Of a stretch of DNA of 64,000 nucleotides, positions 3,626 to 55,159 are shown piece by piece. This stretch comes from Cystobasidiomycetes sp. EMM_F5 (lineage: Eukaryota), in assembly GCA_051047955.1 (NCBI GenBank), contig JBPGPT010000029.1, forward strand, positions 1 through 64,000, in the 5' to 3' direction. The translations under genes were made by a program, and so were the position numbers. Position 1 is the first letter of the stretch. The number at the start of each line of letters is the position of its first letter. The notes beneath the pieces were generated by a model. The model was not told where the DNA came from. It saw only the letters and a list, made by a program, of their open reading frames with translations, and searched no databases.

Positions 3626-3780
3626 CGTGCTAGCTTCATAAGAGCATACTTCATATCATTTCAGGTGAACATAGTTGGTTGGAAGCCTCCCAGGATTCAT
3701 TATAAAAGGTTACCGGAGTAGTAACTCGACAATGCAGCTTCTACGTTCACGCAAATGAACAGCTCTGCAATTGCCAATAC

Positions 3781-5809
3781 ATGCTCAGACTGGCTTGCGT
3801 ACATGCCAGACATGGCACAAAGCAGTCTTGTCGAGGTTTCCGGCTAATGGCATCAAGACCGTACAAAGCAAGTGAACCAACAAAGACGAGATGGTCTGCC
3901 ATTGCACTCGCTGCTCTGCTCGGTGCCGCGACAGCTTCAACGATCCATCTGGCGTTTGGGAGTGTCGAAAGGATTCGAAATGATCACAATCAGATAAAGA
4001 CTGATATCGTAGAACGCCACGATGCGAAAGCAGTGCAAGAGCTGCAGAAGCTGCTCGAAAGCAAGGTGTCCGTAGATCAAGCAGAGATGGATGCATATAC
4101 AAGCAGTCCCAACACGCATTTCCGTACGCTTTACGACTATATTTCCATACGTGTTTTGAGATACTGAAAGACGCACTTTGCAGGGGGACTTGCACCATGC
4201 GCAGTAGTGCACGTCGAAAGTACGCAAGATGTTAGCGAGGTAGTCAAGCTCGCGAGTCGCTATCGTGTGCCGGTCGTTGCATTTGCGGGTGGAACCAGCA
4301 TCGAGGGACAGATTGCAGCTTCTAAGGGCGGCATTATCATCAATCTGTCAAAGATGGACAAGATATTGCAAATCAATGGTGTGTCACAAACTTCTTGTCC
4401 GTCCTTTGCTGAGATCGCATATACAGAAGCGGACGGGGATCTCATTTGTCAGGCGGGCGCGGGCTGGCAAGATATCAATCAACACCTGGAAGAACAGGGG
4501 ATTCCGCTCTTCTTTCCACTAGACCCAGGGCCGTCCGCTACGATAGGTGGAATGGTAGCCACTGGTGAGTACCGGACCAAGCATCGCCAGACTTGCTCAA
4601 ACGAGGTGCGGTAGGATGTAGTGGGACAAATGCAGTTCGCTATGGGACAGCGAGAGCAGAATGGTTTTTAAACCTAACTGTAGTCATGCCTGACGGTTCC
4701 ATCATCAAGACTAGATCTCGAGCGAGGTAATCAATGCCCTCACTTTCTCGGTCAGACATGCTGAGCGGACATCTTTTCCAGGAAAAGCTCTGTCGGCTTT
4801 GATCTGACCAAGATCTTTATCGGAGCCGAGGGGACACTGGGCATAGTTACGGAAGCCACACTGCGATTGGCTCCACTCTTGCCTACACGGGTAGCCGTGT
4901 GTAGTTTTCCCAGCGTGTTTGCGGCTGTAAGCTGCGTAGTGGATGTCGTGAATGCCGGTCTGCCGGTGCAATGTGCCGAGTACTGCGACCCCTTCTCCAT
5001 GCACGCTCTCAATTCATCCAAACTGTGCGAGACGAGATTCGACGAACGCGATACCGTCTTCTTCAAGTTTCAAGGCGATGAAAATGAGACGGGCAGGATG
5101 GCGGATAAGGCTGCAAGGATTATTCAGAAACATAACGGCACGAACATGCGCTTTGCAAAATCAAAAGAAGAGTCGGACGAGATCTGGAATGGAAGAAAAC
5201 AGATGTATTGGAGTTTGTGAGTATTTTCGCACTATGGGTTTCAGCAAAAATGTCATTGAACGCCACGGGCTGAGACGTTTTATCCAGATTGGCGATGAAT
5301 CCGGGAGGAAAGATCTATTCGACAGACGTCTGCGTACCGTTGAGCAAGCTCCCGAAGCTCGTCCAAGATACAAAGCAAGACTTTGATGCGTGCGGTATAC
5401 GAGCCGGTCTCGTTGCGCATGCGGGAGACGGGAATTACCATGCTGGCATATTGTACTCGACTGAGGAGGAGTTTGAGAAGGTAAAAGCAGCTCATCGAAG
5501 GGTAGGTCCATTTGGCTACATGAATACGCAAGTGACTAACGATGTGGTTAGCTTATGGATAGAGCCATCGCTTTGGACGGAACGGTCTCTGGTGAACATG
5601 GAATTGGCCTGAGCAAGAGGGAGTATGTGGAGAAGGAGCTTGGTTCGGAGACTGTCAAGGTAATGCGGACCGTGAAGGATGCGATAGATCCGTTGGGGCT
5701 GTTCAATCCGGGAAAGATGTGGGTATTCATTGCGTAAATGAATGGCATCATCACAGACTGACTTTGACGTGTACGTCCTTTCGGCAGATTCCCCGACAGA
5801 GAGGTTTAA
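3781..5809 (+). CDS. DLD1: FAD-linked oxidase, mitochondrial D-lactate dehydrogenase (cytochrome)-like
   Basis: Arg-rich presequence plus TM segment; motifs AGGTSIEG, PLDPGPSATIGGMVATG, GAEGTLGIVTEA, HAGDGNYH, GTVSGEHGIG, DPLGLFNPGK. The last exon IFPDREV* ends at 5809. Confidence 0.88.
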
Positions 5810-22874: not shown

Positions 22875-24814
22875 TTACTGAACCACTTTCTTCAGTACGA
22901 GGACAGTCTTCATGCTTCTAAAGATACACTTCATCAGTTTCGCCGTCATTCCTGCGTCAGCTCGGCGGCACTGACTTTGGCACCACGAAGAAGTGTTCAA
23001 CAGGCATCATAGTTACCTCGGTCGTGGCTGGGTGAGGCAGAATCTCCCAGCGGCGTATTACCATGGCCATTATAAGCCGCATTTCTGCCCAAGCCAGACT
23101 AAGAGTCTGTCAGCTTGACATCAAATTCAGCGTGATGCAGAAACCTCACTTCATTCCTACGCAATTCCGAGCTCCAGTACTGAACGGGATGAAGGCGTTG
23201 CGCATCTCCGCAGTCTCGTTGAACCACCTCTCCGGCATGAACCTGTCGCCTTGCACGAAGATGTTGGCATCTCGATGCATCGTGTACGCCGTTGCTGTAA
23301 CATCAGTCCCTCCAGGTAAGAACAGCCCACATAACAGGGTTCCTTCGCTTGGCACAGTTCTCTCCAAAGGGCCGGGGAGTGTAGGCCATCGCCGCAGTAC
23401 TTCTTTCAAGAATGCATTGAACAGAGGCAGAGCCTCAAGATCCTTGAGGCGAGGCGGACTATCAGGTTCAGGCATGGCTGGTCGAAGCTCTTCGCGGATG
23501 CGATTTTGTAAATCCGCATCTCGGGAAAGCTCCCAACTACGGGCAGTACGTCGGCTTAAATGTCTGCAATTTTGTCACGATTGATATCTTACCACCCGTA
23601 TGTCATAGCTGTCGAGGTTGTGTCACTACCAGCAATCAGAATAGCGCCAGCTTCTGTGATCATGTGGGCTTTGGTGATAGCCGGATGTCCTACTGACGCT
23701 TGGTGCAGTGACTTTAGCAACTAGTACAGAAATCCCCGCATCAGTAGCTTCACCAATGGTATGCCGGTTGCCTTACGTTTGGTCTGACAGAGTCAGTGTT
23801 GTCCAATTCGCCACTGCTTTGCATTTCGCGTAGAATGTTGAAGCCGTAGTTTTGGAAGAATTTCTCCGCATTGTATAGCTTTGTCAATGGTGGAATCGCT
23901 CTCGTCGACATCAATCGTGCGGCCAAAGGCAGGTTATCTTTGACGATGGCTGTGCAGCAGTCGATTCATTTCGCTGCCACACTTGGACAGAAATCACGCA
24001 TACCTGCGAAGAAGACAGTGGCCATATTCTCGACGAGAGTGGATAATTTTCCACTCTGAGTCATTGCCATATCCTGTCCATAAGCTAAACTTCCTGCAGC
24101 GATAGTAGATATTACCCAATGAACCTTAGACTGGGGAAACATCGTCTTACCAATGATGTCGAAGGCTGCCAATCGCATCCAACGGAAGATATCGACGCAT
24201 CCTGCGTTATCTTGATCCTTTTGCATCTGAGCAATGAGCTGATTTGCATACATCTCTAGATCCGGCCCGAATGCATCGAGATTTGCTTTTTGAAAAAGCG
24301 GTAGAAGCAAACTCCTGCGGTACTTCTGTTCTTTTAGATCTTCTATAATGAGAGCATGCTCCACACTAGCAATGCGCTTTCCCCGATAACGTGTGACGGC
24401 TTTTGTGAATTTGCCGCCGTACACCTTTTTGAGCTCGTCAGGGTCGCTGAAGCTGCAGAGATTTGGGGAGATTCGGACGATGGGACCTCGCGTCAAGGTT
24501 AGCCGTAAGCCCAGACCTCACAAATCAATAATGCACATACCATACTGTTGGTGCAGTTCATGAATCCATTCGGATCGACGACCCCGCACGACCGCTTGGT
24601 ACGTGTCGGGCAGTGACGTGAATTTGCACAAGAGCGGGCCAGGAACCTTGGCTAGAGGTGAAAGTAATGCTAGATAGATGACATGGCCTAGATGCCGAAT
24701 TAAGACCCCTCCGACTACGATAGTGAGGCCGAGCCAGAAAATGTGATAGTTCTGTTCAAGTGGCGCATATTTGGACAAGTCCAGCGACAGATACTGGGAC
24801 ATGTAGCCAGGCAT
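22875..24814 (-). CDS. Cytochrome P450
   Basis: N-terminal TM, PLAKVPGP, GPIVRISPN, I-helix LIAGSDTTS, K-helix KEVLR, PERW, heme motif FSTGARNCVG. The last exon ...KTVLVLKKVVQ* stops at 22875. Confidence 0.95.
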
Positions 24815-24898: not shown

Positions 24899-24918
24899 GT
24901 CCCACATCTTTATGGGAC
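24899..24918. promoter_or_regulatory. Cluster motif site in the P450 promoter: GTCCCAC plus inverted half-site ATGGGAC
   Basis: GTCCCA-CATCTTTA-TGGGAC, 85-104 bp upstream of the P450 ATG. Confidence 0.7.
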
Positions 24919-25539
24919 GCACGTCTGCCCCACAAATCAGTGCCTGTATAGTATCATCAGGCACGCTAATGGTGCGGCCGTGCTGCTCCTGCAGCAGAGA
25001 GTTGAGGGAGTTTAATGTAGTCAGAATGCACACGGTCTAAGAATGGTCCCAAAGCAACCGGATTTGCCAAAAGCGTCATCGACTTTCTCACGTTGTGAAT
25101 GAAGGATCCGGCGATGACACCAGTATTTTTGCGTGAAAGATGTGCTACCAATACGATCCTCTCCAACAGCGATGCGTCCCTATCACTTCAGTTGACATCC
25201 ATGAGCCACGCATCGAGAGTATTGGGCGAGACGCTTAAGTGAAATTATAGAACTGCTGCTTCTGACCTGATAACAAATTTTGTTCAGATGCGAACAAGAA
25301 TGCTGTATGTTGGCCATCGCCTCCTGTCCTTTCAGAGATTACGTGGTGAGCTCTCTAGATCCTTGATGAGCTTTATTTTCAGAGCGTGTACAGTATAGCT
25401 ACAAAGCGTTACAAAGCGTTCGCTGAGCTTGGCATGGCCAGTCGAATAAGCGACGGCCATGGCGCGGCGGAAAGATGTCCCTATTTTATCACGTAACGAC
25501 GGAATGGTCAGATCCGTCCGGTAGAAGCACCATTTGCGT

Positions 25540-26317
25540 TTAGGCCGTGGTTGGCGGATAGGGCATCATGCTATCCATGCATGCTCCAACATCATTTGCG
25601 ACCAAAAAGCGCGATACCATGTTGTACGTTGCAGCTATTGCTGCCATTTCGACGAGCTGCTGCTCAATGGAGCTCGCTTGACGACGTTGGAGGAGTGCTT
25701 GCCGAACCCGGTTGTGTAGATGATCCGGGATACGAATGAGGCAGGTGCAAGCATCAGCGTAGAGAATGGCTGCCCGCTCGAGCTCGTCAGTGAATGGGTT
25801 CTCGCTCGAGGATGAGTCTATATCTCGTGTTAGATCCGAGACCCAGCTGAGTTGCTCATCTGTCACGCCCTCGTCGCGAGCAGGTCCCTCGTGCTGCATC
25901 CACTCGTAGACTGCACGATTGCGCACTGCAATGCGAAGCACCTTTTTCGTCGTCAGAGGTTTAAATCATCGAGCAAGTCAGTATCAAAGCCATGCTCCCT
26001 CCCATGCTTCTCAATAGACGGAGACGGCGCACCATCAGCTCTCTGATATTTCCTGGAATTGAAGTGCCAGATCTGATAGCACCCAGCAGCGCATTCCAAC
26101 CGAGCTGAGGTTGCAAACACATGAGCTCGACATCTAATGCGACGAAGTAAAGAAGACTCACGGCTACCTTTGGCGCGTGCAATAATACTGCGTCCAGCTC
26201 CAAAAGACCCCCAGCACCTCTTCTCTCGCGGATGGCATCGGCGGCGGCAGACACGCCCGGCTCTGGCCATATCGGCGCAATGTATTGCACGGATCTTTCG
26301 GAACGCGCCATGCCCAT
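25540..26317 (-). CDS. Carboxymuconolactone decarboxylase / AhpD-like family protein
   Basis: IRERRGAGGLLELDAVLLHAPKVA | GWNALLGAIRSGTSIPGNIRELM | LRIAVRNRAVYEWMQH...LVEMAAIAATYNMVSRFLVANDV. No AhpD CxxC motif. Confidence 0.85.
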
Positions 26318-26436
26318 CCCAGCTTGACGGATAGATACGCTGTTTTCAATTAGCGATACTCGTGCAATTGCGCTTCTTCAGCGGGCAATCCGCCGTGCTG
26401 CCGGCCTTCAGCGGGTCCCGCAAGTCAACATTTACC

Positions 26437-26446
26437 GTCCCACATC
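26437..26446. promoter_or_regulatory. Cluster motif site in the bidirectional CMD/FAH promoter (GTCCCACATC)
   Basis: 10-bp identity to the P450 site (24899-24908); about 120 bp from the CMD ATG and 112 bp from the FAH ATG. Confidence 0.72.
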
Positions 26447-26554
26447 ATACTGCCAGAACCCGCGTACGAGCATATCCTATGAACGTCTTAAAGCAACCTC
26501 TTCATTCCCGTACCTGCATATATCCAGTTGCTGCTCGTCTCCTCGAAACACGCC

Positions 26555-27666
26555 ATGCTTGACTGTGAACGGCTCATTCGATTCAGAACGGGCGGAGCTG
26601 TACACTATGGCGAACCCATACTCGACACCGATAGCGCCAATCAGGACTTTCAAAGAGCAGTTCTCAGCGGCAGCGTCCGAGCTAGAGTCATCTCTGCGCC
26701 ATCAGGCATCTTTAGCTCGGATGCAGCCCTGACCTCAGAGCAAGTGCAGGTCGACGAATTACTCTGCCCACTCGACAGACGCGACGTACCAATCATTCGC
26801 TGCATCGGATTGAATTACAAGCAACACAGTACGTTTGTGTTATACTTTGCGACAAACGCTGGCCGTAGTGGCCATAATCGGATGATAGGGTCTGAAAGAG
26901 TTGCCTCCTACAGTTCTTGAAGCTGGCAAATCACTGCCGCCGTATCCGTCCATCTTCTTCAAGCCATCTACTTGTCTGGCCGGACCAGGGGCTGCGGTGG
27001 AAATACCCAAGATCTGTCAGAACCCACCACAAGCCGACTACGAAGGGGAGCTATGTGTGATCATTGGGAAAACAGGCAAGAACATCTCGCTCGGTGATGC
27101 AATGTCGTATGTGTTCGGCTACACCTGCGGAGACGACGTAAGTTCGCGTGCTTGGCAGCGGGAGAAGGAATTGGCCGGAGTAGTGCCCCAGTGGGGTTTC
27201 TCCAAGGGTTTTGATGACTTTGCAGTCATCGGTCCATGCGTAGTGACTAGCAAAGTGGGTATTACTTGATGCGATGCGTTACGAAATGCTGAATGACAGA
27301 CCCGCCAGCTTATTCCCGATCCTGCGGGGCTGCACATGCGTACTCTGGTCAATGGCGAGGTACGGCAGTCTACGCCAATTGCAGACCTCTGCTTCGATGT
27401 CAAAACCCTCGTCAGCTTCATGAGCTCTGGTACCACCTTAGAAGCTGGAACGGTCATCATGACGGGTACGCTGCATTTTCTATACACGACGCTTGCCCAT
27501 CCCCGCCTAATACGATATTGGCGCTTCCTTGACACTTGCAGGAACACCTGGCGGAGTTGGGTTTGCTCGCAAGCCGCATCCGTCTTGGCTGAAAGAGGGC
27601 GATGTTGTCGAGGTGGAGATTACCAAGATTGGCACTCTGCGCCATACAATGTCCGAGGAGAAGTAG
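26555..27666 (+). CDS. Fumarylacetoacetate hydrolase family protein (FAHD/Fmp41-like)
   Basis: IRCIGLNYKQH, PSIFFKP, ADYEGELCVIIGK, GYTCGDDVSSR, SKGFDDF, GTVIMTGTPGGVG, LKEGDVVEVEITKIGTL. Confidence 0.93.
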
Positions 27667-27917
27667 TATGCGATAGCTCGAGCACGTACATACACCCGAT
27701 GTAGGCATAGGAAAGCATAGGAAAACGTATGCGAGCCCAGTCGAACTGTCTCCACTTGCGAAACTGCCAGCACCAGGTTTGCCCATATCGCAACTCTGCA
27801 AGCTCTGACCAGCACATCCGCGGCGACAGAAGATGCCATGCAGACCACGCTGATCTAGCGACCCCATACTCGCTATTTGCCGGAGACTCCAGGTTACCAC
27901 GTCCAAGTCCGCCAGCG

Positions 27918-30790
27918 ATGACGGCGAAACTCGACCGAACCTGCTCGCACTGCAGCAGGCAGTTCTTGAAACCTGCTCATCTGCGACGGCATCTCGAGGT
28001 CCACGCGAAGAGCCGACCCTTTCTATGTCGTTTGTGTGGAAAATCGCTGAGTCGGGCTGATGCTCTGGCTCGTCATATCCGGACAGCCCACTACAACGGA
28101 ACGTCACAAAGTGCGGTGGACGTTGGGCATTCTGCAGTGCCGCCGCTGGTGGATCCCCTCGCTCAATTGGCGTCAGACCCGGCCAGCGCCGTTAGCGACT
28201 CTGCATGGAGCATGGATGGTGCCGTAGCCCGGACTGACTCTATCGACGTTGCTGTCATCACGTCCACTGCGCGAGGACCAATGAATTCTGCACCACTTCC
28301 TCCGCTTGGTGTGACAGTTGCATCTATACGCGAGCCGCCCGCCAACGACAGGCAGGAGAGAGACGATGTTGCGATATTACAAAGTGCAGGAGAGCTCCTT
28401 GACGTACCGGACTTCGCCAGTACCAATGACCAAAGTCTTGTGGAGCCTGCTCCTCTTGTCAGGGATGACATAAACTTCAGGCAACAGCCGGACAGCCAGC
28501 TTGACAACTTTCTGAATATGCTGGCTTCCATTGGTCAGCCGACTAGCTCTCAAACAGTATATCCCATCTTCGGTAATCAAGATCTACAATCTAACTTTGG
28601 GACAGGAGCAGAGTGGGCGCTTGCCTCTAACGAGGGGAGCGCACCACCAGCGATCCACACTATCTTTGGCGCGAATCCGGCCAACGATGGCCCTTACAGC
28701 TGGCTGGACGATTTTCTCGTTCCCGAATGCTGGAGTAGCGGAGAAATACAGCAGTCGAATATCATTCAGCCTCTCCAACACGGCATGCCTCCGGGGATAC
28801 CGCCTCTCGAGGCACATCTCGAACCGCCGTTTGCTACAATGAGCAATAACGATCACGACGACTGGTCGCTTCCTGGTCATGCATTGTTTGGCCGTATTCG
28901 TGAGAATGATGGCAACAGGACGCACCAGCAGGAGGCGTCACCGGCTGATATTTTGCGAGAACTGGAATTGACGTCGGCGGTGAGCAATCTCAGCGGTGCG
29001 AATGATGCTAGGCTTACAGAGAGCGCTCGTAGGCACCGAGTCGAGATGATGTAATCCCATCGGAGAGCATGCTGGCAGCATGCATTCATCTGTACTTCCG
29101 CGACTTTCATCCACACGCGCGTATACTCCATCGCTCTACTTTTGACCGGCGACAGGCATCGCCCTTGCTCGTCGCGAGCGTGTGTAGCATTGGCTACATG
29201 TTAATGGGTACGGATCATGCGACAGAGAGAGGGCTGTGGATCTTTTATCGATTGCGCCGGGTTATAGCAGCAACAGTACGTGATGACAGTCAAATGCTAC
29301 GTAATCAAGACCAAGCTGGGCTGAATCTGTTCCTACAATCTCTGCCACAATGGCTTCTAGTGGGATTCAGAGCACTGTACCGAGAGGCAACGCTTCATTC
29401 TGCTCCTGGCGGGCACCTTGAATCAGTGCATGTCGCTTTTATTGGGACGTCCAGAGATTTCGTCTTCCGATGAAGTATACAGTGCAGCCCTTATATCGCT
29501 AGCGCGCGCGTTAAAAGGCCGTCAGTGGCTAGACCAGAATCAAATTGACTATGTTGACGTGGCCGACTTGAATGATGACGAGCTGAATCTACGGTGGACG
29601 AGATGGTTCCGACAAGAAATGCTCAGGCGGTGAGTCGAATTGTGGCAAGATGGTGACCTTTCGAAGTATAACTCGTTCGGCATGCCCCTTTTACAGTGCT
29701 TGTCTAGCTACAAACCTGCAAGCTGCCGAGCTGGCGATACGAACCGGGTCCCCTCAAGCGTATTTGAAATTCTTGACGCGACAAGAGAAGTTTAGTGATG
29801 CGCTATTCGAAGCTGAAGACGCCGCATCATGGCGGATACTTCTTAGCCAAAGGCGTGCCGCACGCAACAATGCAGTTTCAGGGAACCAAGATTCGAGCGA
29901 TCTTTTTAGCATGACATGTTTGGCGCAGGAAATCCAGCAGCTGCTCATTGTCGAGAGCATGCAGGATGTCCAAACAATGAAAACGGTATGCGAACCGATG
30001 CGTATCCAGTACGACAGGATGACCCACCTGGCGGAGCAGCTGGGAATCCCGAGAGGCGCTCCAGCCGCAAGAATGTCCTTGGACATGATGTGGCACTATT
30101 GCTGCATGTTTCGGCTTGCAGGTGTCGAACTACTTTCTCAATTCTGCGATAACGTATGGTCTCCGACTGACCGGCATGCCCTTGAGACTTTCAATCACTC
30201 GTTGATGCTACCATTCCTGATGATACCGAAGGGAAGACTGGCCGTCTTGCATGCATGCGCACTTCTGCAGGCGGCCCGCATGGCCGATGATCTTGTTCTG
30301 CTGGCATATCCGTGAGTCTATATTCGAGGGTCTCCTGGATGGGCTCATATAATGCGTACGCAGAATCATCAACCATGCGACGCGCCTTGTCATAGCCTGG
30401 CTGACCATACCACGGTCGGAGAATCGCTCTGCTCCGTCATTGCACATCCGACATACGGATATGAGCGTTAACAATGGCGAGTGGACGAAGCTGGGTCATG
30501 CATTAGATAATGCTGCACCCCAGGGCTCGCCAATAACAGAGCCGCACAAGCTTGTTTCGGCCTTTGTCCTGGACGACATCGGGCGACTCGCTGTTGACGG
30601 ACTATTCGAAGGAAAAGATCCTCGCGAGGACATCGAATGGTGAGCGACAGAATTCCGGGATGGCATCCGTCATATGGTGCTAAGAGCGGCATCAACTGAC
30701 GCGCTATGCAGTCTCAAATCTGCAGTAATTAGACTTCTTCGCCGAGGGGCTTTGTTCCAATGCGACTCTTCTTCACTGCAAAACACATAG
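27918..30790 (+). CDS. Two-finger C2H2 transcription factor with fungal TF middle domain (cluster regulator)
   Basis: CSHCSRQFLKPAHLRRHLEVH and CRLCGKSLSRADALARHIRTAH; 'LYFRDFHPHARILHRSTF...LLVASVCSIG' and 'WTRWFRQEMLRR'. The 3' end is inferred by splicing. Confidence 0.88.
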
Positions 30791-31168
30791 CATATAGCAT
30801 ATCTATGGTTGCTCATCAACACGATTGCATACAAAACCTAGAGATCGGTTGCCTGCGACGGGGCAGTCATATGCAGTCCCGCCGGCAGTCGCGCCGTGCA
30901 AAGGCGCGTTGTGGGCTGGTAACCGCGAAGCCGAGCTGAAGACCGCTGGCAGCGGCTGGGGAGCTGTCTTTTTTATACCCAGTAGCCATCCCGTGTCAAG
31001 CAAAAGCCGAACTCGCTGCCACGTGGTGTGTAGTCGGCTACAAAAGCGCAGCACAAGTCCCAGTCTCCAACGGTTGCACCAGCTTCAGGCCGGTGTCACC
31101 CACCCCACATTGACCATTTGCTCTCTATTCCCCGCGTGGTGCCCCTTGTCCCCGTGATAAACCTATTT

Positions 31169-31175
31169 GTGGGAC
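31169..31175. promoter_or_regulatory. Cluster motif site in the MFS promoter (GTGGGAC)
   Basis: TGTGGGACC is the reverse complement of the P450 site GGTCCCACA; 147 bp upstream of ATG 31322. Confidence 0.68.
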
Positions 31176-31321
31176 CTTGCGGTGGTAACTGTACATGCAG
31201 CCTGCGCCGCCGGAGAGCGTAAGGTCCGCCTCTTATTCCACTGCCAGAAGCCTTCTTGAAGAGAGGCAGATCGAATCGGTGCGTCTCGCTTGTAGACATC
31301 GACACTTCCAAGTCGGAGGAA

Positions 31322-33770
31322 ATGACACTCGACAAAGCTGCGGGTCTCCACGCTATAACGCCTACGGCTTCAGAAAAAGGTCACGACCAGTTCATCGAGG
31401 ACAATACTGCTCAACCCTCCGTCACTCAGAACTTGTCGTATGACAATGATGAAGAAGAGCCGGTTCTGCACTGGCGCACCTGGGTCGCCCTTGCGGCACT
31501 ATGGATGCTCAACTATGTCCAAGTCTTTGCCCTGACAGGACCTCCAGCTGTGGTACGAAGTCCTTGACTCAAACGTATGCTTCTAATTCTAGAGCTGACG
31601 AGAAAGCTACCGTTCGCTAGCTGTCGTACCTCGGCGAGAGCGTAACAGATGGGTCTGTCCAAGAAAAATGGGTGCCGAATGTGCTTTCGTTGGTGCAGGC
31701 CGTTGCGGGTCCCATCATAGTCAGTTTTATCGTTTATTGGCCTCCGTACCCGGCCAAAAGCTGACACGCAGCATCTAGGCTTTCGCATCGGATTCCTTTC
31801 AGAGCCGTAAACTAATCTTACTAGCCACCTGCACATGCTCCTTCGTTGGGTCTGCTATTGCACCAGGGGCTGAGAACATCTACCGCGTGATTGGCGCCCA
31901 AGTTCTTATTGGTGTAGGGTTTGCAAGCGTGCCTTTGGCCTACTGTATTCCGTCGGAAGTGCGTCCTTGAACTTTTTGGTCAGATCCATCGCTGAGCTAT
32001 CACATGGCAGATTATACCGCGACGGTGGAGACCGTGTGAGTCACTACGTAGGGCGACGATCGAAGGGCATAACTGACATATCAGCCTAGTGGCGCAAGCT
32101 AGTGTTCAATTTGCTGCGAATGCGGCTGGCGTTACAGCACCAATGTAAGCCGTAGGTCGCACCTGCAGACCGGGCATCTCTAACACTCGTTTGCTCGTCA
32201 TAGCATTGCAGGCGCATTCACCAAGTACAGTCTTCTAGATGGCTGGAGAAAATTCTATGTACGAGATGCTGAATCACCAGCGCAATCCCTTTTCAGCTGA
32301 TGCTTCGCCGCACATGCCTGTTCCAGTGGGTAGAGATGGGTCTATGGGGTGCGACAGTCGCAGGCATCGCTGTTGCATACCGGCCACCCCGGCGGCGGTC
32401 TCAGTTGGATGACGCTTCTCTGTCTGGCAAGATTAAGAAGCTCGACGTGCCGGGTATGCTTCTAGTACGCGCAGTCACAATTCCCAGCAAGTGCGCGGTC
32501 TGGCTGAGGAGTGTTATTGTCTATACTAGCTGGCTGCAGGCCTGACACTGTTACTCACCGGCCTGGGTCTTGGCGCCAACCCGTATCCGTGGTCGAGCGG
32601 CAGAGTCGTAGGTACCCTGGCTTCGGGATGTGCCACTCTGGTCGCGTTTGGAATTTATGAATGGAAAGGTGCGTTACTGTGCTTGACGCAGCCGCTCAGT
32701 CTGGGAGGTTGACATCGACTTTGGCAAAACGATCAGTGAACCCAATTGGCATCTTTCATCACGCACTTTTCACTGGTTCTTGGCGCATCTTCCCACTTCT
32801 GCTTGCACTCATGTTTATCGAGGGTGTCATGTTATTCACGGTCATCATCTTCTATCCCGTCATGTAAGCGCACTGTGACTGATTCGGAGCTACACAAGGC
32901 TGATCAAAAAACAGTACGGGGGTGCTGTTCGAGCCTGATCCCTTGCTTCAGACCGTTCGGCAGGCGCCTTTCCAGACTGCCGCTATGTGTTCAAGCGTCA
33001 TCTATGGCATTTGGGCAAGCAAGTATAGGACTCTGCGCTGGCCTCTTTTTGCAGGCTTTGTATTCTTTACAGCCGGCTTAGGTAAGAGTGACGTGCAGGT
33101 TTTGGCTACTTACCGTCTTGACTGAGCAAAACTATGCTACAGTCGGTATGGCTACAGTTCAGCTGAACACGTCTACCAGCTTTGTGGTCTTCAACGGATT
33201 AGCCGGTCTTGGATTTGGAGCACCCCTCGTTCTTATCATTTCGGGAGCGCAACTCGCGACTCCTCAATCGCTCATTGCTACTGGCACTGCTGTTATTACT
33301 AGCACGCGAGCTGTTGGTGAGTATACAAGGATGATCACCATGGACCTAGGAACCGAGAGCTGATGTGTAGGAGACTCTCAGCCGCAGCGGTCTTCACTGC
33401 CATCTACGCTGCAGCCGTCAATACGAGATCAGCCACTTATGTCCCCACTTACGTTGCGGAGGCAGCGGTCAGCGCTGGATTGCCTCGGTCGTCGGTGGGA
33501 GCGTTTGTCGAAGCGCTCGCAACTAAGAACAATGCAGAGCTCGCGGCCATTCCGGGTATCAACCCTAGCATCATTGGGGCAGGCGTGAAGGCACTGCTTC
33601 AAGCACTTGCGGACAGCTTCCGCGTGGTCTATATCATCGGGGCCGCTTTTGGTGGACTGGCGTGCCTCATCTGCCTGTTGCTCGGCGACCAATCTGCAAC
33701 GATGAATTACCACGTTGACGCTCCGATGGAAGAACTGACGGCAAAACACCGTGAAGACATCAAGGCATAG
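31322..33770 (+). CDS. MFS transporter (14-TMS DHA2 / TRI12-like)
   Basis: EEEPVLHWRTWVALAALWMLNYVQVFALTGPP, ASDSFQSRK, YCIPSEIIPRRWRP, DGWRKFY, YRPPRR, YPWSSGRVVGTL, ADSFRVVYIIGAAFG; many short exons. Confidence 0.9.
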
Positions 33771-34220
33771 GAAGTGAAGGGGATGGCGAGCAGACTTGAC
33801 ACTATACTTGTGTTCGCACGCTTTATTGAACAGGGACCCTGTATGCGGATAATCGTATCAAAATTTGTGTAGGCTAATAATAAGCATTGCATCTTTCTAA
33901 CGGTGCTGCGATTGCTTGCGCAGTCCTTGGCAGTCTACCTACATTACGATTCGCCTACATGCTGCAACAGTCCCGTCAACGTTCTATGATGGTGTTTGAG
34001 AGTATAGATGTACACTGTCATTGCTGCAACGGTGGTTCCGGTACTTTGCTATAGATCAATGGGATGAAGCTTCATCTTTGCTGATGATGCTTCCTCAACA
34101 CTGCGACTTTGTGTCAGCTCCACGCGCTATGAAGTCCTCGCGCAGCACATCCAGATCGCTCGCATCCCTTCGCAGACTTTCAAATCTAATAAGGCGTTAC
34201 CACATTGACCGCGGTACCCG

Positions 34221-34270
34221 GTCCCACTATGCTCCAGAGTCTGACTGCCCCGGTACACTACGAGTGGGAC
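34221..34270. promoter_or_regulatory. Paired inverted cluster motif sites in the dioxygenase promoter
   Basis: GTCCCACT (34221-34228) and AGTGGGAC (34263-34270), 94-143 bp upstream of ATG 34364. Confidence 0.72.
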
Positions 34271-34363
34271 ACGGCACAGCATGTCAGCTGAAGTTTGCCC
34301 ATCACCCTCTAAAGACAGCTCTATCGTCAGACTGCCCCCCTACTACCAACAAGCGGACTCACA

Positions 34364-35637
34364 ATGGACGCTCGCATAAAGATCAAGCGGATAGCCTACG
34401 CAACTTACACGCACTCGGACATGGCGTACACAAAGCAATTCCTGACTGACTTTGGACTGACCGAGGTTTGCGTCATGGATAAGCGACACTACTTCCGGGG
34501 GTATGGCGACCTGCCCTACATCTACATTGCCGAGGAAGGCGAGCAAGACGAGGCAGTCTTTCAGGGCATGGCATTTGAGGTTGAGAGCGAGGAGGAGCTC
34601 CAGCGAGCGTCACGCTTGAAGGTAGTCGGTGCCTGCCAATACTGTGGAATGCTTTTCAGCTGGTTGACGTCACTCCGCTTCATCACCCAGGGTGCTACTG
34701 GTATTCGAGAACTCGACGGTCCAGGCGGCGGTTTGGCAACTACTCTGTATGACCCGATAGGTCTGGCGGTACACCTGGTGTATGGAACGCAGCTTCGCCA
34801 GGTCGATTTACCATCAGACCCCACCTTGCCTGCAAATCAAGGCTTATCCGATAACCGAGCGAAAGCGCGGCCACCTGGTAGCTTCCAGCGCTTTGATACG
34901 ACGTCCTCGGTACCTGTGCACAAGCTTGGGCACTATGTTCTTTATCTTCCCGATTTTCAGGTGTAAGACAATGGTGTCATTCAGCAGCCAGCATCGGCTC
35001 ATTGCATTCTGTTAAGCATGTTCGACTTTTACACCAAGGTACTCAACTTTGCCCCTAGCGATCTTATGATACGCGCCGATGGGAACACGGCGGGCGCGTT
35101 CTTACACTTGGACAGAGGCGACGAGTGGGTAGATCATCGTAAGTGTCGCAATAAATCCTCGGCGTGGCCGTAGCAGAAGGGGGAATTTTAGGCTAATGGA
35201 CACGCTATGGCTGGAATGCAGATACTCTGTTCATTTTTCAGCCGCCCAACTGCACCGAACCCAGACTACACCATGCTGCGTTCGAGGTCTTCGACATCGA
35301 CCATGAGGTGAGATGCTCACGCCGAATTACCTGCCAGAGACTCATATCTCACTGTAAATAGCTCCGCGCACATGAAGAAATGGTGAAGAAGGGTTACCAA
35401 CTAGCGTGGGGAGTTGGTAGACATATCTTGGGCAGTCAGCTGTTCGACTATTGGTATCAAAATGGCGATGGCTTCAAGGTTGAGCACTACGCGGATGGAG
35501 ATCTCGTCAATCAGCGTACCCCTGTAGGCCGTCATCAAATGAGCGCGGGCCCGAAGAAGGAGCGAGACACGTCAATTTGGGGTCCTGATTTTCAGCCAAC
35601 TTTTCACACTACGTCTCCACTGCGTGTCAAGGCGTGA
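34364..35637 (+). CDS. VOC-superfamily (extradiol-type) ring-cleavage dioxygenase, trihydroxytoluene-oxygenase-like
   Basis: Two VOC domains; candidate metal ligands in HKLGHYVL, LHHAAFEV and VEHYADGD; FLHLDRGDEWVDHH; WGVGRHILGSQLFDYW. Confidence 0.88.
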
Positions 35638-36518
35638 CTGCGAGTGTGACCAGAGGTTCATATCATCCTGTTGTACGTGCAAGTCTGACTGATAAAGCTT
35701 AATGATATCATTGCATGCCGTAAACTCCTGAACATACGTGCCATGGCCAGATGATAGTCTCAAGTGGGAAAACCTGAGTCAGCTCGCGGTCGTTGAAGCT
35801 GCGGACTGGGGGAGCGGATTGGGGTAGCTTCAGCGAAAGGGCCTTGGAAGCCCGACGTTCAAGTTCACCAAAAATTCTGTTGGGGACGTTGACGTTGCTC
35901 ACATCTGCGAGCGTCTGCAGTGTCCGGAAAAGCGAAACAGACGGGTTCTGTGTTATTCAGCGAGCGTACGGATCATGGAACTGCTGACTGACTGGCTGCT
36001 CTTGGTTATGGAATACATTGGGCGACTCTGGCTAGCGCGTCCGAGTGCTCTGGAAGGAGCGACTTCGCTTCGGAAGCGAATGCGCACCAGTCATTATGGT
36101 CATGCCAGCTGTGATACAGTCCTTAAATCAACGCAAAGATCGATAAATGCTGCCTCTGCTTGTCCCGGATCCCATATATACTCGGAAATCGTCCATATAG
36201 TAGCTGGTCGCGAATTGCCTTTCAAGTTCCACAGCAAGGCTGACGCTAATCCATGATAGTCGAAGTCTCCATCAGATGTGGTATGGTCTGGATTACTGCA
36301 TCGCTCATTGGACCATCGCAACAGTCTCAAGATGTTGGGTACGCAAGGACGGGTGCGAAATGCCCATGGTGACGTGGAGAAGACAACTCGAGGCAGCGCA
36401 CACGGTGCATACCGGGCTATTGGCTGCAGGTAGAATGGCAGCATGCGAGTCGTGCTGGCGGGTGCCTCTACCGCTGCGGTGCCGCATGCCGAGAGGTTAC
36501 CACAATCAATGTAGACTG

Positions 36519-36525
36519 GTGGGAC
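36519..36525. promoter_or_regulatory. Cluster motif site in the monooxygenase promoter (GTGGGAC)
   Basis: 125 bp upstream of ATG 36650, flanked by a duplicated CAATCAAT. Confidence 0.68.
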
Positions 36526-36649
36526 TCGCAATCAATCCCCACTCGACAGCTGGCGAGGCTTGCTGTACTACTTGCACAATGCTAAACTACTCCTGCTAAC
36601 CTAAAAACTGAAACAATCACTGACATCTGCCAGAAACGACGAGGCCATC

Positions 36650-39052
36650 ATGACCATCGAAGCAGAGATGGCACGGGATCTGCGCTGTCAGGTCCTCATC
36701 GTTGGCGCTGGACCGGTGGGACTGCTCACAGCACTCAAGTTGCATCAAGCCGGCGTGGATGTAGTCATTGTAGATCGTCAACCTGCTAGATACCCTTTAC
36801 CAAGGTCTGGCTTGCTGCGTACGATATGAGGCGATTCGTAAACCCAAAGGCTGATTTCGCGTCCGACAGAGCTGTAACATGCGACCACGAATCTCAGCGA
36901 TCACTGGCTGCTGTTGGGTTGCAAAAAGAGTTGCAAACGGTCCTGGAGCATACATTAGGCAAGGGAGGGGAAAACGGGACTAACTTCTGTTGGCGCGACA
37001 AGGATCATCGATGTCAGTCACGACTACTAGAGCCGATGAGTGGACTCATCTCATATCAAGCGTTATTTCTGTGTAGTGATAGTGGATCTACACTGGGAAC
37101 GACCGACTAGATCCGGCCTGCCATTTGCAAAAGGCTTCGCGCAACCAGAGCTCGAAGGCTTGCTCGAAGACACATGCATAGCTCGGGGCATCAGGATGTA
37201 CCGTGGATACAGTACGCGTAACACTCGCGCCTACTCGTATCGTTATTGATGACATTTTACAGGTCTTAACAGCCTAGCCCAAGATGAATGCAGCGTGAAG
37301 GCAACATTGACACCTCACCAGCGCGAGAAGAAGGCGATCACTGTTGAATCATCACAGGCAGCTTGCCGCATGCAGAGTATGCGTCCAGATCCGTCTACGC
37401 CCTGCTTGAGAGACGCAATCAGTGACGCGGAGCAAGGTCGTACCCAAGAAATTAGAGTCACCGCCAAGTACCTCGTCGGTAGCGATGGTGCTAACTCGAC
37501 CGTCAGACGCCTTGCTGGTATCACAAACACCGAACTAGACTTTGAGAATGACTGGCTCATATTGGACCTGGTGAGATCGCCCAAGCCTCCGAGCCCTATC
37601 CCTCACAGTCTAACAATGCCCCGCTCAATCTTGCCGTCTAGCTTCTTGTAGATGGCTACGAGCCTCCAAAACTCAAAAAACTCGGAGCAGCGCAAATCTG
37701 TAATCCTGCAAGACCAACTACCATCGCTTCGGGACAAAAAAGGCGTCGTCGCTTCGAGTTTATGCGCTTGCCGGGCGAGAGCAGGGAAGACCTTCTTAGC
37801 GACGCAAAAACTTGGGAGTTACTAGGACCATGGGGCTGGACACAGGTATGATGGTGACAATAACGAGCTGGCGACCGAAGATTGACCGATTCTATGCACA
37901 GGGTAACGTAGTCATCGAGCGACGGGTTATATACACATTCCATGCTAGGTGGGCCAACGACTTCTACAAAGATAGGGTTATACTTGGTGCGGTTACTTTC
38001 GCTTTCCACATTATTGCACTCCGCGCACTTCCTGATCGAGGCGGTTTAAACTGACTGCTGTGTTCTGCAGCTGGCGATGCAATGCATCTCATGCCCCCAT
38101 TCATTGGTCAAGGGCTGAACTCAGGCTTTCGTGATGCAAGCGCGCTCGGTTGGAGGATACCACTGCTTGTCTCCGGCATTGCGAATAGCAAGGCATTACT
38201 GGACAGCTATCACCATGAACGCTTCACGCACGTGCGCAAGCTCACTGTAAGCATCATCACTCCGTCATGTCCCCTTTGCTTCAACAACCCAGTGAAAGCG
38301 GGACAAGCACTGACATCGCATTGCGACGATTTCTCTCTGCATCTTGTCTACAGGAGCATTGCATTCTTCTGGGCAAGGTTGTGTGCGAAACAAACCCTGA
38401 TGCTGCCGTCAGACGACATGCCGAAATGCGCGCAAATCGTAAGTCGTGTCAATGCGTCAGTAATCGACGTCCGAAATCTTGGCAGCACGAGGAGTTTCGT
38501 GAAGGCGCCTATGGCTGACGCTTCGCTATCAATTCTGATTCTTCAGCGCCCAAATCTGGCTATGATCCGCCTCTCGGCCGCCCGGGCTTAATGACTGACC
38601 AGGAGGAGAGCGGACGTCTCTCCCTACAGCGGCCCTTGCGATTTGCCATGCAGGGTGGCGGGATGTGCGACAGGCTTGAACGATCAAGCTCAACGGCGCA
38701 ATCTGAATGTCGCGTTTGCGAAAATACTGTGGCATTACCGCTCTTTGACGAGGTGTTCGGCTACGGATGGAAAGTCATCAGCATGACGTGCAGTGAGCCG
38801 CTGGCGGCTGCGCGCCCGGACTTGCGGAGCTTCTTCAAATCGCTCGGTGGTAAGGAAGCGTACATACCACCAGAGTCCGACATCACCGGCGATTACCGAG
38901 ATTGGTTTACAACCTGCCTGAGTCCCGATGCAGTCGTGGTAGTGAGGCCTGACTTCTACGTATATGGCCATGCTCCCATTCAAGCAATTGATGACCTGCT
39001 CGAAGGACTACAGCGCCGCCTTTGCGAGCGGCCTGAGAAGCAGACGATATGA
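36650..39052 (+). CDS. Class A FAD-dependent aromatic hydroxylase, MhpA (3-(3-hydroxyphenyl)propionate hydroxylase)-like
   Basis: The first exon, missed by the ORF track, reads VLIVGAGPVGL...YPLPR | AVTCDHE. Further motifs: FAQPELE, YLVGSDGANSTVRR, RRRFEFMRLPGE, YTFHARWA, GDAMHLMPPFIGQGLNSGFRDA, and C-terminal VVVRPDFYVYG. Confidence 0.92.
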
Positions 39053-50819: not shown

Positions 50820-51460
50820 GATGATTGAAGCTGTCTCCAGCTTCTGTTGCGTGTCTTTTGGCATTCATTTTCGACTTTTTCGCTGGAAACTGCCCGGGAA
50901 AATCCCAGAACGATGCTTTCGCATGTCTTTTGCACTTCCTGGACTCCCTTTCACGTCGTCTAGCCTCACTTTGTCCTTTCCTCCATAAAAGCGCCCTTCT
51001 CGATTTATTTGACGCGCAGCAGGCACGAAATAAATGTGAAAAGGCAGGCGCGTGCACGCGTTTGGAGGAGAAGACGAAGGATAGGATGTAGGGAGTGTGT
51101 GTCTACCAGCTGCCATCGTTTGTTGTCAGTATATCAGTCTTGTCGATTTATCAGATCTAAGATATCAGGTTTCGTGCGGAGAATCAGGAGAATGTCACCT
51201 TCTTTGACGCGACTATACTGCTATTTGCAATCTAGATCAGAAAAGACGTTAATCTCCTTGAATACTTCATACTCGCACACTTGTTGGGTTGGAAGACTTC
51301 TCGAAACCGCCGTTGCCCAAAGTGAGACCTCTCGACAACCCATCAGCCCTCTTTGCATTCCGCCAAACGCTGAGCGCAACCAACCAACGACGAATACAAC
51401 CCACACTCGCTTTCGCAACACACAAAACACAACACCAGCCCATGCAGTGACTTTTACACC

Positions 51461-54400
51461 ATGAAGTCTGCCATTCTCGGGCTGCTCGTTGCAGTCGCAG
51501 CGGTGCAAACTGCCGCAGGACTCGACACGGCGAGGCTGCAGGATGATGGACGACGAGGAGGAGGAGGAGCAGTATGGCAGGAGAGTGAGCATCCACTGCT
51601 CCGTCAAGGCAGCGTAGCCAATAACCGCAAAGAACGGACATTTGGGGAACCTCAGTCTGCCATGCACCGCGCTGGAGCAGCAAAGCGGCACAACGTACGC
51701 GCAAACCAGCACAGACCAAGACAGGTCATCGTAGACTCGCAGAACAACGACAATGTCGGACTCCCAGTGGTGTTTGAGAATATCGCAGTGACCTCTGGGA
51801 GCGTCAGGACGATACTTACAAAGACTGTCACTCTGACAACGACGCTGCAGGACGGAAGGCAGGGTAAGCATATTCACATTTATAAGTCTACTGTACTCGA
51901 TATCGTCGAATGCGATATTCGTACCCTCGGCTCAAATACGGGGACCGAGCGCGTCTAATTCCTGCAAAACGGCGAATACATACAAAATACTGACACATAT
52001 TGTGCTTCCAACAGCCCTCGTCACGAACATTGAGACTATCAATATCTATCCAACTCCGTCAAGCACCAGCGACAAGCCCGTACGCGTCCAATTGGCATCG
52101 TCGACGTCGAGCAACAGGCAACCGCTGTTCACATCAAACAACAGCCCCTTGGTGCCTTCCAGTACACCATCGACATCGTCTAGGGTAGTTGTATCGCTCT
52201 CGCAGCCCTCGACGTCTCCAACGCCTGAGCCGGCGTCGTCGTCGAGTGCCCCGGCGAGCTCGACAACGTCAAGCAAGGCGATATCGAGCTCCTCAAGCAC
52301 AACATCAGTAGTCTCATCGTCATCGGCGTCATCACCTCTGCCAAAAGTGGCTGTGGTGGTATCGTCGACAACCGAGAGCTCGACTTCTCCACCCTCGACG
52401 AGCACAAGCGCAAATCGACCACCTTTGGTAGCTCCATCTTCGGCATTGGAAAGCAGCAGTAGCACTAGCTCCGTCTCTTCGTCCGCCTCGTCGTCTGCTG
52501 CTGCATCTTCTCAGAGCACGCAACCACAAGAGACCGATGCTTCGACCACTTCTAGAATGGCAAGCTCTAATGCCAGCACCAGATCAAGTCTGCCACCATC
52601 CTCGTCCGATGCATCGTCGACGTCATCAACGACAAGTGTAGTTGAGTCCAGTCGGACTGCATCTTCAGTGTCCCCGTCTACGTCTGTTAGCACTACAACT
52701 ACAAAATCTGATGTGTCGACTAGCGCTAGCGGATCGTCTACCGCTTTGACTGTGCCACCAGCAACATCAAGCACATCTGCATCATCGTCCGCAATTACAT
52801 CGACATCATCATCGACATCATCGTTCAGCACGAGTACCTTTGTCAGTACACCTTCGACTTCATCATCCAGCTCGAGTATTGCTGCATCGTCGACAACGAC
52901 AACCAAGACGGAGGATGTTACAGTCACGGTAACGAGCATTCCCTTTTCGTCACTATCGCTGACGACCTCGTTATCCTCGAGCGTTTCGTCGACCGGTAGT
53001 GCCAGCAGCGGATCGCTGACTTCACAGACAACTGCGAGTTCATCTGGCTTGACTAGCAGCTCGATTTTCACTACTTCAAGCACAGCTTCGAGTGGTGAAG
53101 TACAATCTACGACAACCATCACAGGCGTATCCTCATCGGTGACCTCCAGCTCTCAATCCCAGTCTCAAACGGCATCAAACTCCTTGAGCGGATCTGTATC
53201 AGCCTCTACAACGACTGGCTCTCTGTCGGTATCGGGTAGTGCTGGAAACAACAGCACTGCCTCACCGACAAGCTCCAGTACAAGCTTCTCGGGCTCTGCA
53301 ACAGGGCCGGGGTTGAGCACAAGCAGTTCGTCCTTTACAGGTTCGGGTAATAGTGGCTCATCAACTGGCTCATCCACTAGCTCATCAATTGGCTCTTCTA
53401 CTGGCTCTTTCACTGCATCCGAATCTTCGACCGTCTCTGGAGGGAATGACAATTCGACATCCTCCACTCATACAGGCACCGAAAGCTTTTCGCAAACGTC
53501 GTCTAGCACCAATACCCCGAGCGGATCTTCTTCTTCTACCACAGGCACTGTATCCTTTACGGGATCAAACTCTGTCACCGGTAGCGGGACGGTGACTTCG
53601 ACTGTCTCTTCGTCGACTGTTACGGGATCGACTTTGAGTACTTTTTCCGGACCTTCGGCCGGCGAGAACAGTACCATCACGTCGACTTCTTCGATTCCCT
53701 CTTCGACCACACAGACTCACAGCGCCAGTAGCGATGTCTCAAACAACAGTACCAGCACTAGCAAGTGAGTGTTTATGCACTGTCGTAAATCTGACTGCAT
53801 TCGGGCTGACATTACCGATTCAGCTTCTATTCGTTCGTTCCTACGTCCGCATTGATGGTCAATACTGTCACACCAACAACGACAAGCACAAGCGAGCTTG
53901 CCACTTCCTCGTCGGACAGTGCCAGTACAGCGAGCAATGGGCCAGCTACTACGACCAGTACCTCTGCCGCTCCTTTCCCGACAGAATGGGCTTCAGTCAT
54001 TGTTCCCGCCAATACCGCCACGACGATTCCGAAAGGCTATACTCTCATCAGTATCCTGTTTGGTCCAGCTCTCAGCTGGTCATGGCTGCTGAGCAACTCG
54101 GATGCTTCCGCTCAAGCGTTTGCATTCATGCCGTCCCTTATTGCCGACACGCTCAACATTTCGTCTTCGAATGTGTATACAGATTCGCTGCAGGCATACA
54201 CGCCATCGTCGACTGCAAAGAGCTCCGACATCCTCGCTGTCTACCTTGCGTACATTCCCTCTTCAGATGTGGATGCGCTCAGTGTAAACATCAAGACGCC
54301 AAACAGTGCATTCTACACAAGCTCAAACGGAGTCGCAAAGGAATTGGCTCAAGTTGTCAATCCGACATTCTCCGTCACGAGTTACGCCGCGCAGGGCGTT

Positions 54401-55159
54401 TCATCCAACATTGTCAGCACTCCTGGCACTGGCGGCAGTCTGGCCATTTCAGGCAGCACTACAGCGACCGACAACGGCAATAACAATACCCGTTCGATAA
54501 TCATCGGTGTAGTTACTGGATTTGGTGTTGCTATGCTCGTTGCATTGGCATACTATGCGATCCGACGTGCGAGAAAGACATCCAAGGGATCTGGAAGGGG
54601 CGCTGCGCAACGCAGGCCATCGACTAGCTCCCACATGACAGCCGCCAGTGGGCGCAGTGGTGTACGTCAATTGCGTCTGAGTCGCCAGAGCGAGATGTCG
54701 CAAGTCAGCCGTGATCCAATGCGCTCGATATATGCTCCTGGCCAGTCTCCTGTCTACGCCTTCCCAGGTGGGCGGTCCAACCCAAACAATAACACCTACA
54801 ATCACGAATATACACGTCCAATGTCGGAAGCCTCCTTCTCTTCCAACTCGGACGATACGCACGGATCGTCAGGTTCTTCTCGTAGTGGAGCAGAAGATCA
54901 ATGGCATCGTGGACACGGCTCTGGTCATTCATCGTCTATCGATTTCGCGACCATCAATGCCGGGGACGTCAGGAATTCGTGGTGGAGATTCTCGGATGGT
55001 TTCGGAAGAGCTTTGACGAGTCCGCACTCTGTGGGATCTACTTCGCCAATCAGCTCTCGTCGAAATACAAACCGTCGTATCAACATTCAGAGAGGACCTC
55101 TCGGCGACATTGCAGGCATCTCTCGTCCCCAGATGCAAGAGAACAGCTTGCTCTTGTAA
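51461..55159 (+). CDS. MSB2: Signalling mucin Msb2/Hkr1
   Basis: Signal peptide; about 600-aa Ser/Thr-rich region; HMH domain (GYTLISILFGPALSWSWLLSNSDASAQAFAFMP...YLAYIPS...TPNSAFY); single TM; cytoplasmic tail ending ISRPQMQENSL. Confidence 0.9.

Follow-up and report, generated by a model that had tools for sequence, protein, structure and literature searches.

A promoter heptamer common to the structural genes of a putative catabolic cluster in a Cystobasidiomycetes species, a predicted site of the in-cluster C2H2/Fungal_trans regulator

The gene cluster and its promoter word

We analysed the first 64,000 nucleotides (the window) of contig JBPGPT010000029.1 from Cystobasidiomycetes sp. EMM_F5 (GCA_051047955.1), in which six structural genes, clustered with a transcription factor gene, all have the heptamer GTGGGAC (GTCCCAC on the opposite strand) upstream of their start codons. 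The window is intron-rich, and stop-free splice models, built permissively, were obtained for all seven genes:

22957..24814, minus strand: cytochrome P450 gene (PF00067; about 526 amino acids and 5 introns in the permissive model)
25540..26311, minus strand: CMD/AhpD-like gene, weakly assigned (AhpD-related NCBIfam, E 7e-4; Atlas CMD cluster, 0.91)
26555..27666, plus strand: fumarylacetoacetate-hydrolase-family (FAH) gene (PF01557)
27918..30643, plus strand: transcription factor gene, two C2H2 fingers and Fungal_trans (start and 3' end approximate; end at 30315 or 30643)
31322..33770, plus strand: TRI12-like MFS transporter gene (PF06609)
34364..35637, plus strand: VOC-fold extradiol-type ring-cleavage dioxygenase gene (His-His-Glu motifs)
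36650..39052, plus strand: MhpA-type flavin adenine dinucleotide (FAD) monooxygenase gene (PF01494)

A preliminary description of this DNA had listed six exact copies of the heptamer 85–150 bp upstream of the ATG. Coordinates and strands were all correct, and the gaps, recomputed from ATGs at 24814 (−), 26311 (−), 26555 (+; FAH, set by homology), 31322 (+), 34364 (+) and 36650 (+), are 84–146 bp. The sites and their nearby variants are:

24899..24905, minus strand: GTGGGAC, 84 bp upstream of the P450 ATG
24912..24933: two one-mismatch copies next to the P450 site, ATGGGAC (plus strand, at 24912) and GTGGGGC (minus strand, at 24927)
26415..26421, minus strand: GCGGGAC variant in the CMD/FAH divergent promoter, 22 bp from the exact site
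26437..26443, minus strand: GTGGGAC in the divergent promoter, 125 bp upstream of the CMD ATG and 111–112 bp upstream of the FAH ATG
31169..31175, plus strand: GTGGGAC, 146 bp upstream of the MFS ATG
34221..34227, minus strand: GTGGGAC, first of an inverted pair, 136 bp upstream of the dioxygenase ATG
34264..34270, plus strand: GTGGGAC, second of the pair after a 36-bp spacer, 93 bp upstream of the dioxygenase ATG
36519..36525, plus strand: GTGGGAC, 124 bp upstream of the monooxygenase ATG

Both orientations occur (5 sense and 2 antisense gene–site pairs); a sense-strand copy precedes 5 of the 6 genes, and FAH has an antisense copy only. One-mismatch copies within 40 bp of exact sites number 3 against 0.8 expected, a marginal excess. 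The identical extension that had been reported for two sites exists, as the 10-mer GTCCCACATC common to the P450 and CMD/FAH promoters, but 0.41 such words are expected for that region pair and it is not significant alone; with 2 of 6 sites covered, it was rejected as a longer consensus. Promoter duplication as the origin of the shared word was also rejected, the longest word common to the promoters being 11 bp.

The total number of copies is ordinary (10 in the window; shuffle mean 6.24, with 13 of 100 shuffles reaching 10). Against this stands their placement: whether the five promoter regions are taken as 200, 300 or 500 bp, GTCCCAC is the sole 7-mer that they all contain. When any 7-mer was allowed, which corrects for a word picked afterwards, one was common to five regions in 9 of 20,000 (200 bp) and 26 of 20,000 (300 bp) sets of real non-cluster windows, bearing out the earlier judgement that the arrangement is unlikely by chance, and in 0, 5 and 19 of 2,000 dinucleotide shuffles at 200, 300 and 500 bp. 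The shuffle counts used ATGs off by 1 bp for two genes and by 52 bp for FAH, and the real-window counts used the corrected ones. None of 13 upstream regions of non-cluster genes in the window, their positions being approximate, contains the word. The copies at 4621, 40582 and 56771 are coding, as had been stated (4621 by reading; the other two within long open reading frames), but a further copy at 36716, within the monooxygenase coding sequence, had been missed. The reported lack of a site before the transcription factor gene was borne out, with no GTGGG in 27667–27917; the factor is therefore probably not autoregulated.

The in-cluster regulator and its finger code

The transcription factor encoded in the cluster has two N-terminal C2H2 fingers and PF04082 (E 8.6e-9; Atlas Fungal_trans clusters at 0.93, with the family on 14–15% of members). 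A Zn2Cys6 or half pattern was sought in six frames and none was found. The fingers lie as follows:

27942..28094, plus strand: zinc fingers with helices KPAHLRR (finger 1) and RADALAR (finger 2); code prediction GTG-GGN

C2H2 fingers bind DNA antiparallel, so that RADALAR in finger 2 and KPAHLRR in finger 1 together predict GTG-GGN, which by the engineered code covers 5 of the 7 bases of GTGGGAC. In Table 2 of PMC3607563, GTG corresponds to RSDALTR, and the helices for GGA, GGG and GGT have His3 and Arg6. Together with the placement statistics, this fit makes it probable that GTGGGAC is the binding site of the cluster's own C2H2/Fungal_trans activator (27918, plus strand), a prediction made from sequence. 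Finger 2 (R−1, D2, A3, R6) would read GTG and finger 1 (K−1, H3, R6) would read GG-A; one or two sites 84–146 bp before each ATG would then co-induce the structural genes. We infer binding and activation, as well as the nature of the inducer and substrate. The inducer would be a phenolic acid or else an intermediate of the pathway and would probably relieve the PF04082 region, as for HxnR of Aspergillus nidulans (below). The preliminary description had called the heptamer the cis-element of a regulon that defines the cluster boundaries; placement, its absence from the 13 non-cluster regions and the helix fit support a co-regulated cluster element, while the boundaries fit the flanks within the window only (an ADE3-like housekeeping gene to the left and an unrelated C2H2 gene to the right).

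Loci with homologues of the dioxygenase (handles beginning with L) came from a metagenome scan, from which the best 80 of 149 were taken; 51 are non-redundant and 42 have 400 bp upstream. They are distant ascomycete-type loci with other regulators, at about 43–44% dioxygenase identity or less. One, L075, looks basidiomycete by introns and GC and has the same regulator architecture (C2H2 pair and Fungal_trans; 3089–4243, minus strand), convergent with its dioxygenase homologue. Its helices, LQKHLQR and RLDSLQR, predict G[TC]G-GGN by the code; the contig ends in adapter-like sequence that cuts off the dioxygenase promoter.

Upstream of the homologues the top 8-mer is CCACATTA (9 of 42 versus 3 of 939 background windows), which belongs to clade A. 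Promoters of this clade carry CGG-N5-GTGGTA in 7 of 10 cases, against a background of 1.3% (of 823), while AATGTGG is present in 9 of 10; five of the seven loci with the composite element are closely related, so their independence is overstated. Copies lie at:

L033, 1089, 3803 and 9764: composite element in all three structural promoters
L046, 9771, 3924 and 1300: three copies at equivalent places
L008, 7001 and 1124: copies at both places that its contig covers
L027, 1795, and L036, 4530: composite element in further loci

L033 has a fourth copy inside its transcription factor gene (6762) and none upstream of that gene. A blind shared-word test on this locus returned GATACCAC, CGATACCA and CGG-N5-GTGGTA in 3 of 3 promoters; some gapped word was common to 61 of 600 random triples, and one starting with CGG to 2 of 600.

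The regulators of L008, L032, L033, L046 and L060 carry a C2H2 pair followed by Zn2Cys6 and Fungal_trans. Zn2Cys6 domains prefer CGG, and a domain of this type that follows finger 2 in the protein would come to lie 5' of GTG, at the position of the CGG. In the L033 regulator, finger 2 (RRDILNR) fits GTG and finger 1 (TRTTLTR) fits GT-; Table 1 of PMC1920264 pairs Ile3 with T. Similarity between the L033 and window regulators is confined to a finger. GTG-G is common to the start of both elements; the fifth base is G where finger 1 has His3 and T where it has Thr3, a suggestive sign, from two regulator families only, that this base tracks finger-1 residue 3. By analogy, L033, where 3 of 3 promoters hold an element suited to the regulator of that locus, argues for the in-cluster factor as the reader of GTGGGAC, as do the HxnR precedent and the like architecture of the L075 regulator.

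Clade B loci include a third regulator type, with a Zn2Cys6-like start in L029 and homologous regions in L014, L037, L055 and L065. Dioxygenase promoters of clade B1 (L001, L006, L016, L035, L044, L047, L051, L064 and L073) carry GTGGGGT in 8 of 9 cases and ACTGCCG in 7 of 9, and L018 and L021 have the inverted arrangement CGGCAGT-N14-ACTGCCG, probably a Zn2Cys6 site.

Competing explanations and a second element

Several observations weigh against the in-cluster factor as the reader of GTGGGAC. Conservation in related species had been proposed as a check, and no enrichment of the exact word was seen upstream of homologues in these distant ascomycetes, whose regulators differ (3 of 42 versus 33 of 939 background windows); the word occurs in 0 of 10 (A), 1 of 9 (B1), 3 of 8 (B2) and 0 of 12 (B3), with a background of 3.9%. 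The top 6-mer upstream of homologues is GTGGGG (20 of 42), and many C2H2 factors of fungi are suited to G-rich words that contain GTGG. The engineered code fixes only 5 of 7 bases and leaves the last C unexplained, Lys at position −1 of finger 1 is absent from the code table used, and by the same code finger 1 of the L033 regulator should read GTT where GTA is observed. Close relatives of the finger pair were sought and only the window's own protein was found among 8 candidates and none among 17. The splice models, finally, are permissive.

Some of these points would suit a real regulon element whose reader is an unlinked factor of broader scope (CreA/Mig1-like, Adr1-like or CSL-like), the in-cluster regulator binding something else. 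GTGG-core words (GTGGGG and, in B1, GTGGGGT) are common upstream of homologues whatever the neighbouring regulator, and in B2, where GTGGGAC in 3 of 8 promoters exceeds the background, L029 has a Zn2Cys6-type regulator; GTGGGAC is missing, however, from the L029 intergenic regions adjoining FAH and P450. The consensus words are SYGGRG for CreA/Mig1 and GTG[GA]GAA for CSL/Cbf11. GTGGGA mismatches the former with A at position 6, and the CMD/FAH promoter has no SYGGRG; with a final C, each of the six sites mismatches the latter at position 7, and GTG[GA]GAA occurs in 1 of 5 promoters. None of SYGGRG, AGGGG and GTG[GA]GAA is present in all five. With a broad factor, other promoters should carry the word too, yet 0 of 13 non-cluster regions do, and we regard this explanation as unlikely.

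The sense copy in 5 of 6 genes at a narrow distance (84–146 nucleotides), together with the lack of TATA[AT]A, sought in the cluster promoter regions and found in none, would be compatible with an orientation-dependent core-promoter element or an RNA element of the 5' untranslated region (UTR) in post-transcriptional control. This is improbable: FAH has antisense copies only, the dioxygenase has an inverted pair, and the finger-code fit is a fit at the level of DNA. Chance, with the word chosen afterwards, would be in keeping with the ordinary window total and with the 19 of 2,000 shuffles that share some 7-mer in 500-bp regions; it is made scarcely credible by the corrected rates at the observed distances (9 of 20,000 real-window sets; 0 of 2,000 shuffles) and by the independent match of GTGGGAC to the helices of the regulator. 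The in-cluster C2H2/Fungal_trans protein thus stays the probable reader of the heptamer.

The dioxygenase promoter of the window also matches the clade-A element:

34198..34211, minus strand: CGG-N5-GTGGTA element CGGTCAATGTGGTA, 152 bp upstream of the dioxygenase ATG

With a matrix built on 12 ascomycete sites, weighted as 5 groups, this site has the top score in the 64 kb (15.5 bits; next 15.0, at 56371). None of 156 background windows and 1 of 3,000 Markov windows reached that score, and the site shares its strand with all seven dioxygenase sites of clade A. Given that about three clade motifs had been viewed and the choice was led in part by resemblance to the window, such a match might arise by chance perhaps about 1 time in 100. 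A cluster-wide role for the element was rejected: only the dioxygenase promoter scores, and the background windows (of 156) that match or beat the other promoters number 112 for P450, 36 for CMD/FAH, 119 for MFS, 87 for the monooxygenase and 63 for the transcription factor gene. The second-best score falls within a KN-type homeobox gene (PF05920; 56221–58538, minus strand).

The match is present although the regulator of the cluster lacks Zn2Cys6. The nearest named relatives of the dioxygenase come from Acaromyces and Sporisorium, and in a tree of 59 of 61 rows (those with fewer than 150 aligned residues were dropped; the 51 non-redundant loci were used) it groups with the proteins of these genera at FastTree support 1.0; its identity to P0013 is 52%, and to no ascomycete sequence does it exceed 46%. 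A recent transfer of the gene from clade A was rejected on this grouping, which makes a dead relic at 34198–34211 unlikely. The site may serve an unlinked hybrid factor, be a secondary site of the local regulator with a chance CGG, or be due to chance. A plain Zn2Cys6 transcription factor gene, its cysteine cluster split by an intron, lies 20 kb from the cluster (959–3630, minus strand); having no C2H2 pair, this gene near 3600 was rejected as the hybrid factor. A joint reading would be that the monooxygenase–dioxygenase–FAH module swapped regulators across fungi (plain Zn2Cys6, C2H2-only and C2H2–C2H2–Zn2Cys6 hybrid), the word changing with finger-1 residue 3; that the hybrid reads CGG-N5-GTGGTA with three modules in line; and that the dioxygenase promoter keeps a working copy beside GTGGGAC, read by a second, unlinked hybrid factor across the ascomycete–basidiomycete split. 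We hold this possibility to be doubtful, if worth stating.

Other words recur in the cluster promoters. GGT[AC]AATGT occurs at 26428, 31107 and 34202 (all minus strand), three of its four window copies thus lying in cluster promoters near GTGGGAC, and its dioxygenase copy overlaps the composite site; a pattern of this sort turned up in 293 of 400 null sets, and GGT[AC]AATGT was rejected as independent evidence. CTGCCAGAA is found in three promoters (26450, 31241 and 36627) and TGACTGCCCCG in two (30859 and 34242). With GTGGGAC masked, the promoters share 22 near-9-mers, many of them overlapping, against a null mean of 3.7, and 4 of 300 sets reach 22.

Pathway, related systems and implications

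The dioxygenase has extradiol PDB matches down to E 2.5e-9 and the motifs HKLGH, HHAAF and EHY in the window; its fold and His-His-Glu ligand motifs support its assignment to the type I extradiol (VOC) class. For all four monooxygenase exon pieces, scanned singly, PRK06183 (MhpA) is the best NCBIfam family, each scoring far below the 390-bit cut-off. By summed bit scores only, this enzyme is nearer to Pseudomonas/Acinetobacter MhpA-type enzymes (about 180) than to the full-length one of L033 (75). The CMD gene had no Pfam match and its PDB search was also empty; PF02627 is on 28% of Atlas CMD cluster members. The putative pathway would take a phenolic acid through hydroxylation, meta-cleavage and hydrolysis; in it, the MFS protein would act in uptake or efflux, the P450 and the MhpA-type monooxygenase in ring hydroxylation, the VOC dioxygenase in extradiol cleavage and FAH in hydrolysis of the ring-opened product. 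Trihydroxytoluene oxygenase is a putative label, and a resemblance to the Herbaspirillum fde flavonoid pathway is presumed.

By eye, branch-point and acceptor-like sequence at 36560–36640, immediately ahead of the monooxygenase ATG, hints at an intron in the 5' UTR. Further along the window, 51374–55159 (plus strand) is a long Ser/Thr-rich, single-pass membrane, mucin-like gene, presumably Msb2-like.

The monooxygenase–dioxygenase–FAH core is an old catabolic module. Among the 51 non-redundant fungal loci a monooxygenase is present in 17 and FAH in 14, counts limited by how far each locus sequence extends. In bacterial monooxygenase–VOC dioxygenase–FAH operons (L081–L135, many from related Pseudomonas), FAH is found no more than 6 kb from the dioxygenase in 55 of 55 loci, and a monooxygenase in 41 of 55; these operons differ in having TetR regulators and an acyl-CoA ligase alongside in two annotated loci (L085 and L091). 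Phenylpropanoid-degradation clusters of the pterocarpan hydroxylase class (10.1101/184242) also combine a monooxygenase with a P450, a transporter and a transcription factor, with FAH among the shared homologue groups; they are mostly from Pezizomycotina, 'glyoxalase' does not occur in the main text, and the parts of that source used describe no promoter element.

A cluster motif with an in-cluster regulator is a known kind of arrangement in fungi. HxnR, the pathway-specific factor of the A. nidulans hxn nicotinate cluster, has two N-terminal C2H2 fingers and PF04082, an architecture called unusual for pathway-specific factors, and its orthologues were found only in Pezizomycotina (PMC5746545). 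By architecture it resembles the window regulator as an in-cluster catabolic regulator; its cluster has other enzymes and another substrate, and the account used gives no HxnR binding site. The AfXanC site AGTCAGCA of the xan cluster (PMC8406171) is, like GTGGGAC, a short word common to cluster promoters; it is not kept in relatives, as GTGGGAC is not enriched in the distant ascomycete loci. It is bound by the in-cluster factor and was tested by promoter mutation, whereas binding to GTGGGAC is here a prediction; the xan cluster is biosynthetic, has another motif and, in that source as far as used, comes with no mention of a C2H2 code. Cmr1/Pig1 (PMC10789848) shares the domain order of the regulators of L008, L032, L033, L046 and L060; Cmr1 regulates dihydroxynaphthalene (DHN) melanin, and the window regulator differs by its lack of Zn2Cys6. 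GTGGTA and TACCAC are absent from the main text of that paper. Among the literature matches listed, with subscription journals mostly outside coverage, none describes the GTGGGAC word, the cluster or the composite site.

Since fungal cluster motifs are ordinary, the finding without the regulator swap and the dual-site reading would hold no surprise for a specialist. With a factor identified, its site predicted and six positions given exactly, the regulation and substrate of an uncharacterised basidiomycete meta-cleavage cluster become directly testable, and the factor–promoter pair could act as an inducible switch or biosensor. For dual-domain C2H2–Zn2Cys6 factors the prediction is sharp, CGG-N5-GTGGTA; if the composite reading is true, it would amount to a grammar of DNA binding for factors of the Cmr1 type. 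The comparison also offers a natural instance in which a finger residue and a base appear to change together.

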